IMG/VR virus record: IMGVR_UViG_2698536301_000018
Coordinates: 1 to 9,131 of that record
Length of the DNA stretch: 9,131 nucleotides
Strand: one strand, 5' to 3'
Source of the DNA: a virus
Lineage: Duplodnaviria > Heunggongvirae > Uroviricota > Caudoviricetes
Positions 6,001-9,000 of this stretch are shown piece by piece. A program made the position numbers. Numbering within the stretch: the first letter of the stretch is position 1; every line of letters begins with the position of its first letter.

Positions 6001-9000
6001 TACGCGCCGTCCATGACAGCCGTAGCAGGCTTATCGATCAGCATACAGTCGATATGATCGGCAACACTATACTTGATGCTTTGAGCCGCTCATAAACTTT
6101 TCGTGATGCCGTAAGCTATGGCATTCATATTCAGGATGCTGCAGATCGCAACGGATGAAGAGACATCGTTGTTGACAGTCTGGAAGAGGTATCGGGTGTT
6201 ACTGAACCGTGTTGATACGTCAGTATCTCCAGATTTCGAGGGCCAGTAATACCTGATTTATAGTTCGTAAACGTTCGTCTGACGGGATGCTGGAAGGATG
6301 AATGAGTTGCCAGATACTCAAAAACAATAGTTAATTTCCAGTTTTTTGTTGTCATGTCATGGTGATGTTTGTTAAGAAAGTAAAGATTGATTCATTTTGA
6401 AGGTTGAAATGTATGCTATCACCATCTTCTGTAAATTTGGGGTGTTCATGGAATTCTTTAACCAGAAACCTGACTTTGCCTGATAATCGTGTTTTATCCC
6501 TCTGTAAGGGATGCTGCCGCTCACTCTGATAATGGGGCGCAAGTAAAGGTTAGCAACAGAACATATCGCGTTGTTTTAAGTGATAATAGGTTTTGCGTGA
6601 CAAGAGAGAGTCATAGTGGATGTTTTACTAATATGCTGTATAGACTGGGATGGCCTAAGGGAGAGATCACCAGAAAAATTGAGGCTATGCTGAATTCATC
6701 GACAGTGAGCACGACTATAGAAAGAGGATCTGTTCGTTCGAACAGACCTGATTTACCTCCAGTGGATTATGCGCAGCCGGAGTTACCGCCAGCGGATTAT
6801 ACTCAGTCAGCGTTGCTGAGGCTTAGCAACAACAAATCACCCGTGCTAGGTAACGTTATTGGTAAAGGTGGTAATGCTGTCGTGTATGAAGATATGGAAA
6901 ATACAACAAAAGTGTTGAAGATGTTTACTATATCTCAAAGCCATGAAGAGGTGACAAGCGAAGTTCGTTGTTTCAACCAGTATTATGGTGCCGGGAGTGC
7001 AGAGAAAATATATGGCGATAATAGAGATATTATTGGTATTAGAATGGATAAAATAAATGGAGAATCGCTTTTAAATATTTCGTCCTTGCCAGCACAGGCT
7101 GAGCATGCTATTTATGATATGTTTGAGAGACTGGAAAAAAAGGAATTCTTTTTGTTGATACAACAGAAACAAATGTTTTATATGATCGTGTGAGAAATGA
7201 ATTTAATCCAATAGATATATCATCTTATAATGTTTCTGATATTTCATGGAGTAGACATGAAATCATGCAATCTTATCATGGAGGAAAGCAAGATCTTATT
7301 AGTGTGGTATTAAGTAAGGTATAATATTTTTATACAGCCATATTTTTTATAATATTTATTTGTTAAGGGGGTTTTGATATGTTACCAACAAGTGGCTCTT
7401 CAGCAAATCTTTATTCATGGATGTATGTATCAGGAAGAGGTAACCCTTCGACTCCGGAATCAGTAAGTGAACTTAATCATAATCATTTTCTTACTCCTGA
7501 ATTACAAGATAAACTTGATGTTATGATCTCTATATACTCAAATGCCAGAAATAGTAATGAGCTTGAGGAAATTTATCAAGAGCTAAGTGCTTTTGTAAGT
7601 GGGCTGATGGATAAGAGAAATAGTGTATTTGAGGTGAGAAATGAAAATACTGATGAGGTTGTCGGAGCACTGAGGGAGGGGATGACGATAGATGACAGGG
7701 ATGGTTATATCAGGGAGCTTTTTTTTCTGTATTCATTGAAAGTAAAAATTGAGGAAAGTAGACAAGGTAAAGAAGGTTCTAAATGTAAAGTTTATGGTCT
7801 GTTATGTCCGCATCACTCTTCAGAGCTATATGGTGATCTACGAGCAATGAAATGTCTTGTGGAAGGATGCAGTGATGATTTTGATCCTTTTGATATTATT
7901 AGGGTGCCGGATCTTACTTACAACAAAGGAGCTTTACAATGTGGATGATTAGAGGGAGGTCCTGTGAGCCTGCTTATCATTTTGTGTAAACGCTTTTTTT
8001 TAAAAGTGACCATCAAGGTGGCTACCAAGCTCGATTATAAAGTAGCATTGTCCATTTCTGTGATGTGGATTGCCAGCCAATCACTTTGTTTGCTGACTTG
8101 TAGTCGGGGATATCGGGAGCACCTTGCATTTCCTGACGGCGTGCTATACGACACCTCACTGTACACACGTAGTTACAAATTTACCCCAGCGCAATGGTCT
8201 CAGGAGAGGGGCGATTAATTTCATCAGATATTCTTCGTCAGAAGGTGGTGATTATCCATGATATTTGTGTATCGACTTTTTATAAGAGGTTTCTGGTCGG
8301 GATTATATAAAACTGCGGACACGTCGTATGCAAGAAGGCGCTACGGTTTTCTGATAAACCTTTCGCCAGCATCATCTGCTTCAGCCCAGTAAAAAGAGAC
8401 GCGAAAAATGCACAACAGGCACCACACGTCATGCATGGATTAGGATTGCTCATAAATTCACTACTTGAGTATCAGTAATGTTAAGGGATATCAGGAAATA
8501 TTTTATGAGAAAGAAAAACAGCAAACTGGTCAAAAATAACTCAAAGAAGGCTTGGAATATTCTTATTGAATTCAACGTAGTTTATTGATTTTTCGTGTAT
8601 GTTTTTAAGACATTTATTCCAAGAAAAATTTATAACCTTTTGATTTTGCGATTCGGTATCATCGGTCTCGAAAACCGGAGTAGGGGCAACTCTACCGGGG
8701 GTTCAAATCCCCCTCTCTCCGCCACTTTATCAATGACTTATCTCCCGACTTCCCGCCTTGCTTTTCCTAAACAGAACAATCGTAGAATATTCTTGAAGGG
8801 TTAGATCGTCACTGTTTTCTGTTCGATACTGTGACATTCAGCACTTGATTCCTATGGATCTGACAGGAAGCTTTCGAGCGAAAATGTGCAGTTATTCAGT
8901 CGTTTTCTTATCGCTCACCATTATTCTTTTAGACATTCATCCTATGAAACTGCCGCAAAGTTGGTGGTGGGAACTGAAGTTGCGTAGAGAAGGGGTCAAT

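Follow-up and report, generated by a model that had tools for sequence, protein, structure and literature searches.

Loci of effector genes situated at the very end of lambda-like prophages have been termed exchangeable effector loci (EELs; PMC8112680), and in Escherichia coli O145:H28 a prophage at the tRNA gene serU carries nleB, nleF and nleH, all three of which are removed when this prophage is replaced (Nakamura et al. 2020, PMC7067040). Anticodon-centred sites represent a major class of tRNA integration sites, and island ends are marked by a regenerated tDNA and a displaced tDNA fragment (PMC4383910). The stretch of viral DNA analyzed here (the window) comprises 9,131 nucleotides (IMG/VR record IMGVR_UViG_2698536301_000018, Caudoviricetes) and represents an entire draft contig (CYFA01000058.1, 9131 bp; assembly GCA_001284345.1), which limits conclusions on its flanks. 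Near its right end it contains a 3' fragment of serU, the gene for tRNA-Ser(CGA), at positions 8663-8724, and we consider it very probable that this fragment is the attR junction of a lambdoid prophage integrated in serU via a tyrosine (lambda-type) integrase. The general scheme of tRNA gene integration by tyrosine integrases was reportedly laid out by Reiter in 1989 and by Williams in 2002, and Tobe et al. are said to have treated the exchangeable effector loci of lambda-like prophages in 2006. Both the serU junction and the arrangement of genes next to it have already been described; the locus is a textbook case at a published site that is frequently occupied in enterohaemorrhagic and enteropathogenic E. 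coli lineages.

For the window, tRNA genes were predicted with ARAGORN, protein domains with Pfam and RNA families with Rfam. The prophage-free strain ARS-C101, in which mtfA, serU and yodB lie next to each other without insert, served as empty-site reference, and positions 8300-9131 were used as megablast query against 5426 complete E. coli genomes. The fragment (plus strand; CGGTCTCGAAAACCGGAGTAGGGGCAACTCTACCGGGGGTTCAAATCCCCCTCTCTCCGCCA), which forms the core of attR and whose identity and extent are read directly from alignment, ARAGORN prediction and fold, is 62 nt long and identical at 62/62 positions to positions 29-90 of the 90-nt tRNA-Ser(CGA) between mtfA and yodB of ARS-C101. An earlier note, made from the sequence alone, had described a serU-like 3' portion of 61 nt at 8664-8724; it is indeed a piece of serU, but it starts at 8663 and is one base longer. 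In the O157:H7 prophage at serU, tRNA identity begins one base later, at the equivalent of 8664. The fragment retains the anticodon loop with four of its five stem pairs, followed by the variable and T arms and the 3' strand of the acceptor stem with CCA; what is missing is the 5' strand of the acceptor stem, the D arm and one base of the anticodon stem, its first. Upon folding it forms the anticodon, variable and T hairpins only, with the 3' acceptor strand unpaired (z-score -0.6). It has no complete cloverleaf and is not a functional tRNA gene, and the search for an intact tRNA that the earlier note had called for was negative, as ARAGORN predicted no complete tRNA gene in the whole 9131-base window. 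Two Rfam matches at the fragment were rejected as family assignments: one to the plastid psbI-rps4 3' untranslated region, which is antisense (minus strand), scores 40.9 bits (below the gathering score of 68) and is aligned over the T arm and the 3' end, and one to tmRNA, which covers the T arm only. We read both as probable by-products of the tRNA fragment. A 69-aa open reading frame (ORF) across the fragment (8595-8804) was taken as spurious because it spans the phage/tRNA/host junction.

The host flank is likewise directly visible. The fragment is followed by the serU-yodB intergenic spacer (8725-9038, plus strand), whose 314 nt are 100% identical to ARS-C101. Fragment and spacer together (8663-9038) are identical to the empty serU site of this strain at 376/376 positions in a direct alignment, far above chance, and all 5426 of the 5426 complete genomes match this segment, with a tRNA-Ser annotated beneath the match in most of them. 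The majority of these genomes align only from the tRNA onward, and the occupied junction type is present in 839 of the 5426 (15%). In every relative examined, the spacer continues into yodB, zinT and msrQP. The locus combines several features of a displaced tDNA fragment: a true tRNA 3' part, its native downstream flank, mobile DNA on the other side, and elsewhere an empty site with the same breakpoint. Host chromosome had been proposed for all of 8725-9131. The suggested comparison with the region downstream of serU in a prophage-free strain bears this out for 8725-9038, whereas positions 9039-9131 (minus strand, starting with GTAAGCGACTCG) are the end of an insertion sequence (IS) element of the IS66 family (ISCro1-like) and include the 3' end of its transposase gene. 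Only these 93 bases of the element lie within the window, and 93/93 of them match the terminus of an ISCro1-family element annotated in ETEC4070 (tnpC, tnpB and tnpA on the minus strand). Host identity ends at 9038 in each match listed among the complete genomes; therefore none of those genomes shows an IS66-family insertion here. The element would have inserted into the host spacer after integration, 314 bp downstream of the fragment.

The integrase end of the prophage was read in the closest complete genomes examined, EPSSH018 and Z1322HEC0003, as stand-ins for the source strain. EPSSH018 aligns with positions 4657-9038 of the window with three mismatches, aside from an extra IS element in EPSSH018. 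Leftward from the fragment, its prophage comprises the effector locus, tail fibre, lom, J, lambda-like tail and head genes and the terminase, further on lysis, Q, replication and immunity genes, an exonuclease and a DUF4224 protein, and at the far end a tyrosine recombinase (Pfam Phage_integrase), which is located 27 bp from an intact tRNA-Ser(CGA) adjoining mtfA. This lambdoid prophage measures ~50.7 kb in EPSSH018 and ~48 kb, with the same layout, in Z1322HEC0003. The intact serU copy and the integrase that were to be sought at the other end are thus directly seen in both relatives; the corresponding end of the source strain lies outside the single contig, and its attL is presumably like theirs. 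With no tRNA gene in the window, a native host flank on one side and an integrase plus an intact serU at the far end in the relatives, the earlier view of the fragment as the distal junction of an element integrated into a tRNA gene is well supported.

The integrase itself (EPSSH018 stretch 23252-24302; Z1322HEC0003 10725-11775) has an open ORF of 341 codons with Pfam integrase domains, which is 100% identical in E. coli and Shigella flexneri representatives; the coding sequence (CDS) called by the Prokaryotic Genome Annotation Pipeline (PGAP) is 25 nt longer than this ORF. Possibly, the enzyme is intact and its C-terminus is shorter than that of the reference model.

Comparison of the two ends also narrows down where recombination would have taken place. 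When the window is aligned with attB, attL and attR, attL consists of the host 5' part and a tRNA 3' part, then phage sequence, and attR of the phage arm and a tRNA 3' part, then host sequence. The two copies of the tRNA 3' part differ in the variable arm, which reads GTGGGGGCAACTCCAC in attL and GTAGGGGCAACTCTAC in attB and attR, the window included; this difference is an A-U to G-C change and is compensatory in the stem. In a scan of one representative genome per species, the E. coli and Shigella flexneri representatives both have the G-C allele next to an integrase that matches the EPSSH018 one at 100% identity, and the allele is also present in several other Enterobacterales representatives, including Brenneria, Rosenbergiella and Pluralibacter. 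Because it lies beside an identical integrase in E. coli and Shigella flexneri, the G-C allele is most probably the phage-borne allele, and the fragment in the window would then be the original host copy. Taken together with the divergence at 8662/8663, this places strand exchange between 8662/8663 and the polymorphic base 8682. The resulting candidate interval (8663-8681, plus strand; CGGTCTCGAAAACCGGAGT) is the anticodon stem-loop, (C)CGGT/CTCGAAA/ACCGG; its left bound is the phage/host divergence and its right bound is position 8682, at which attL (G...C) differs from attR and attB (A...T). We infer the crossover, and likewise the exact cleavage points, to lie inside this stem-loop. The interval appears to match the anticodon-centred ('A') class of integration sites, and according to Williams (2002) the halves of the anticodon stem are said to serve as inverted core sites. 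It was also observed that the regenerated serU (EPSSH018 locus stretch 24330-24419) carries the compensatory G-C in comparison with native E. coli serU; cells lysogenic for this type of phage would therefore express a slightly altered tRNA-Ser(CGA).

Integration at serU can be pictured as follows. A separate copy of the tRNA 3' part would have been present on the phage attP, and recombination in the anticodon stem-loop would have joined the host 5' part to this phage copy. A functional serU would have been regenerated at attL, adjoining int and mtfA, and the original host 3' part would have been left at the far end of the prophage, still attached to its native downstream spacer. Since the host 3' part would come to lie at this far end, the last block of phage cargo, which is the effector locus after the tail fibre genes, would abut the fragment. 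Several points weigh against this picture. The IS element cuts the host sequence after 314 nt, and continuity into yodB is not visible in the source strain. As the window is the whole contig, neither the strain's own integrase end nor its regenerated serU can be seen. PGAP calls the integrase frameshifted in both EPSSH018 and Z1322HEC0003, which makes present-day excision competence doubtful. Finally, the part of the window from lom to IS2 joins the serU-type effector locus via a junction that is absent from the 5426 complete genomes, and therefore the upstream DNA may stem from another prophage, or the join may be an assembly error.

An alternative to integration at serU is that the fragment represents a fossil serU junction, carried as cargo in a lambdoid prophage located at another site, in which case there would be no real boundary at this position. 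Such fossils exist: the free phages ev099, mEp332 and PhiR70_1 match positions 8540-8724 of the window, and in the two examined, ev099 (3004-3462) and mEp332, 277 bp of DNA from downstream of serU, an AraC-family gene and IS remnants come after the att arm and the tRNA fragment; ev099 also has an annotated integrase. The fossil-to-AraC junction occurs in 645 complete E. coli genomes, and in JNQH497 (about 6650-7110, an estimated position) a fossil junction lies in a prophage remnant adjoining ybhB and bioA. A serU fragment with some host-like flank is therefore by itself no proof of a boundary, and in the window an IS element interrupts the sequence ahead of any host gene. However, the host-derived stretch of the fossil stops at the equivalent of 9001 and matches the true locus at only ~97% identity, as opposed to 100% for the window, in which this identity extends 37 nt past the endpoint of the fossil, up to 9038. 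In addition, yodB and zinT follow in all of the genomes whose effector loci are closest to that of the window (99.9% identical). In view of the perfect match to the true locus and the 37 nt beyond the fossil end, we rejected the fossil junction, which we regard as very unlikely here.

About equally improbable is a contig that is in part an assembly artefact, with prophage and IS repeats misjoined, so that the order of tail fibre, effectors and att would not be real in the strain. The contig is a short one from a draft assembly, and it breaks off on the right in an IS66-family element, a repeat present in many records, and on the left inside the phage gene lom. It also contains an internal copy of IS2 (IS3 family; 2667-3941, plus strand; Pfam HTH_Tnp_1 and rve; left end TAGACTGGCCCCCTGAATCTCC), a family found at a median of ~4 places per genome. 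Positions 2640-3944 are 99.9% identical to annotated copies of 'IS3-like element IS2 family'. The full length of IS2 is, as we assume, 1331 bp, and the copy in the window is short by ~55 bp at its right end. This truncated end is joined to a second, partial tail-fibre 3' end with the C-terminal-domain gene (3942-4656, plus strand), which is 97.4% identical to 1103-1818 (18 mismatches at 687 aligned positions); because 18 positions differ, the two copies are not a simple collapsed repeat. The junction between IS2 and tail fibre was found in 0 of the 5426 complete genomes and is due either to prophages having recombined in this particular strain or to an error in joining the draft contig. Contiguity of nleG and IS2 is seen in three other genomes. 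Against a misassembly relevant to the tRNA junction, the stretch from 4657 to 9038 is collinear and ~99.9% identical with complete genomes, and a misjoin would affect 1-4656 only. An in-frame fusion of IS2 to the second tail-fibre copy was noted at the same place. A truncation of serU by non-specific deletion or an IS event instead of site-specific integration, which the abundance of IS elements in the region might suggest, can practically be dismissed, as breakpoints in unrelated prophages differ by no more than one base, the junction type recurs in 839 genomes, a matching attL with integrase exists and no IS end adjoins 8663.

Phage DNA directly adjoins the fragment on its left, in the form of an AT-rich, phage-derived att arm (8540-8662, plus strand) that is conserved in serU prophages and free phages: it is common to other serU prophages (Survcare253) and to ev099, mEp332 and PhiR70_1, and the O157:H7 element shares it from about 8612. 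Within this arm, the 11-mer CTTGGAATATT (8551-8561, plus strand) stands out by its recurrence. It occurs once in the whole window and in two exact tandem copies in the integrase-side arm of attL, where a degenerate copy, CTTGGAATTA, was read from the attL sequence just ahead of the tandem pair; one copy each is present in the O157:H7 arm and in ev099. By our own arithmetic, ~0.004 exact chance matches are expected in a window of such size. We propose that CTTGGAATATT is a putative arm-type binding site of the lambda-like integrase. Apart from this, the native serU trailer at 8725-8800 (CTTTATCAATGACTTAT ... TAGAATATTC) resembles the integrase-side arm of attL (AAATTCAATCACTTAT ... TTGGAATATT; EPSSH018 stretch 24250-24329, minus strand). 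Either the phage arm was derived from an ancestral tRNA trailer, or the 'empty' site retains an old phage footprint.

The fossil module seen in ev099, mEp332 and JNQH497 appears to be a relic of an imprecise excision that took place at serU long ago. This leads to a more far-reaching suggestion, which we put forward tentatively and think rather unlikely to hold as a whole: that the serU attR junction travels as a module of att arm, 62-nt fragment and 277 bp of chromosome, that its homology could drive RecA-dependent exchange or rearrangement of effector loci, and that the 'empty' site may hold an ancient phage footprint, the last because of the likeness between the native serU trailer and the integrase-side arm of attL (TCAAT-ACTTAT ... 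GAATATT). If true, fossil-bearing prophages and the serU locus would share ~340 bp of homology, by which prophages at serU and those located elsewhere could exchange effector loci in a RecA-dependent manner or give rise to chromosomal rearrangements.

The remainder of the window represents the end of the prophage from lom to the att arm, with all of the following features on the plus strand unless noted otherwise. It begins with the last 41 codons of lom, encoding an Ail/Lom outer-membrane protein (1-127; ending in ...GFIVGVGYKF*; Pfam Ail_Lom), which align to the Ail/Lom CDS of EPSSH018. Next is an stf-like side tail fibre gene with collagen repeats (192-1505; Pfam phage_tail_N, 2.7e-69, Collagen and Phage_fiber_C; annotated homologue), followed by a tail-fibre C-terminal-domain gene (1507-1776), the hairpin AAAACCGGAGTCCGGCTCCGGTTTTT at 1791-1818 and a type III secretion system (T3SS) effector gene of the nleG family (1840-2529; Pfam T3SS_NleG, 2.3e-43), for which the gene caller of the assembly places the start at 1891. 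Beyond IS2 and the second tail-fibre copy lie nleB2, an arginine glycosyltransferase effector gene (4791-5771; Pfam SseK_NleB, 4.6e-180; annotated in a relative), and a 5' fragment of nleC (5805-6095), a pseudogene cut after ~96 codons and matching profile positions 1-64 of 251 only in Pfam Peptidase_M85; the nleC of EPSSH018 is annotated as 'missing C-terminus'. Downstream of the nleC fragment lie a remnant of a tail-fibre-assembly gene, with a sub-threshold match to Rfam IS009 at 6014-6224, and a second copy (6343-6387) of the 45-nt sequence after the hairpin, 87% identical to 4650-4694. The gene nleH (6413-7324) carries two frameshifts according to its three-frame translation, with the N- and C-terminus in one frame and the middle in another; its longest ORF is 6489-7193, the match to OspG_kinase is weak, and the EPSSH018 orthologue is also annotated as frameshifted. 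The last effector gene is nleF, encoding a caspase inhibitor (7379-7948; Pfam NleF_casp_inhib; annotated in a relative). Between nleF and the att arm, neither an 84-aa ORF (7964-8218) nor a 57-aa ORF on the minus strand (8280-8453) had Pfam matches; the region of the latter is annotated in relatives as a YkgJ-family cysteine-cluster gene or pseudogene fragment.

The order lom, stf, tail-fibre C-terminal gene, effectors and att, the beginning of which had been recognized earlier, is thus confirmed, and NleG, NleB2, the truncated NleC, the frameshifted NleH and NleF are all encoded between stf and the tRNA fragment, as expected for an exchangeable effector locus. The placement of the effector cluster between tail fibre and att therefore stands, but the cluster is not a simple block, as it is broken by the truncated IS2 and the second partial tail-fibre 3' end. 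To judge from the repeated segments, recombination at homologous tail-fibre sequences seems to have stacked two or three effector loci here; the leftmost join could be an assembly error in the draft contig instead.

With the junction at serU, the right-hand limit of the prophage is set at 8662/8663, and the effector genes are phage cargo at the usual exchangeable position next to att. The boundary is helpful for annotating the draft contig and for typing the effector repertoire of the strain and adds no new biology; the signature of a displaced fragment already underlies existing island-finding software. Among the described elements, the prophage of Shiga toxin-producing E. coli O145:H28 uses the same serU site, and O145:H28 genomes, which are among the best matches, cover the whole window at 98.3-98.6% identity. 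In Z1322HEC0003, att arm, tRNA fragment and host flank (8300-9038) are 100% identical to the window, and the locus from nleB2 through truncated nleC and nleH to nleF of EPSSH018 is ~99.9% identical. Compared with the elements of O145:H28, EPSSH018 and Z1322HEC0003, the window has an extra 2.8 kb (nleG, the truncated IS2 and the second tail-fibre 3' copy) and the IS66-family insertion in the spacer, whereas EPSSH018, unlike the window, has an IS3-family insertion between the truncated nleC and nleH. The tccP/espJ prophage of O157:H7, which we take to be Sp14/CP-933U, occupies the same site and shows the order J, lom, stf, tail-fibre C-terminal gene, effectors, serU fragment and yodB; its att arm is related and includes CTTGGAATATT, yet it is only partly similar, and its cargo is tccP and espJ instead. 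Escherichia phage SerU-LTIIb (KU052038) matches 8547-8724 at 92%, with a tRNA-Ser annotated beneath, and has the same att type, but its cargo, judged from the name of the record, is a heat-labile enterotoxin in place of the T3SS effectors of the window. As in other EELs, the effectors are clustered at the prophage end after the tail fibre and by att, although the locus in the window is composite and decayed, with nleC truncated, nleH frameshifted, remnants of tail-fibre-assembly genes and IS2. From the Islander scheme (PMC4383910), in which the tRNA is regenerated beside the integrase, its 3' fragment is displaced to the opposite end and the crossover centres on the anticodon loop, the window, taken together with its relatives, appears to differ in nothing.

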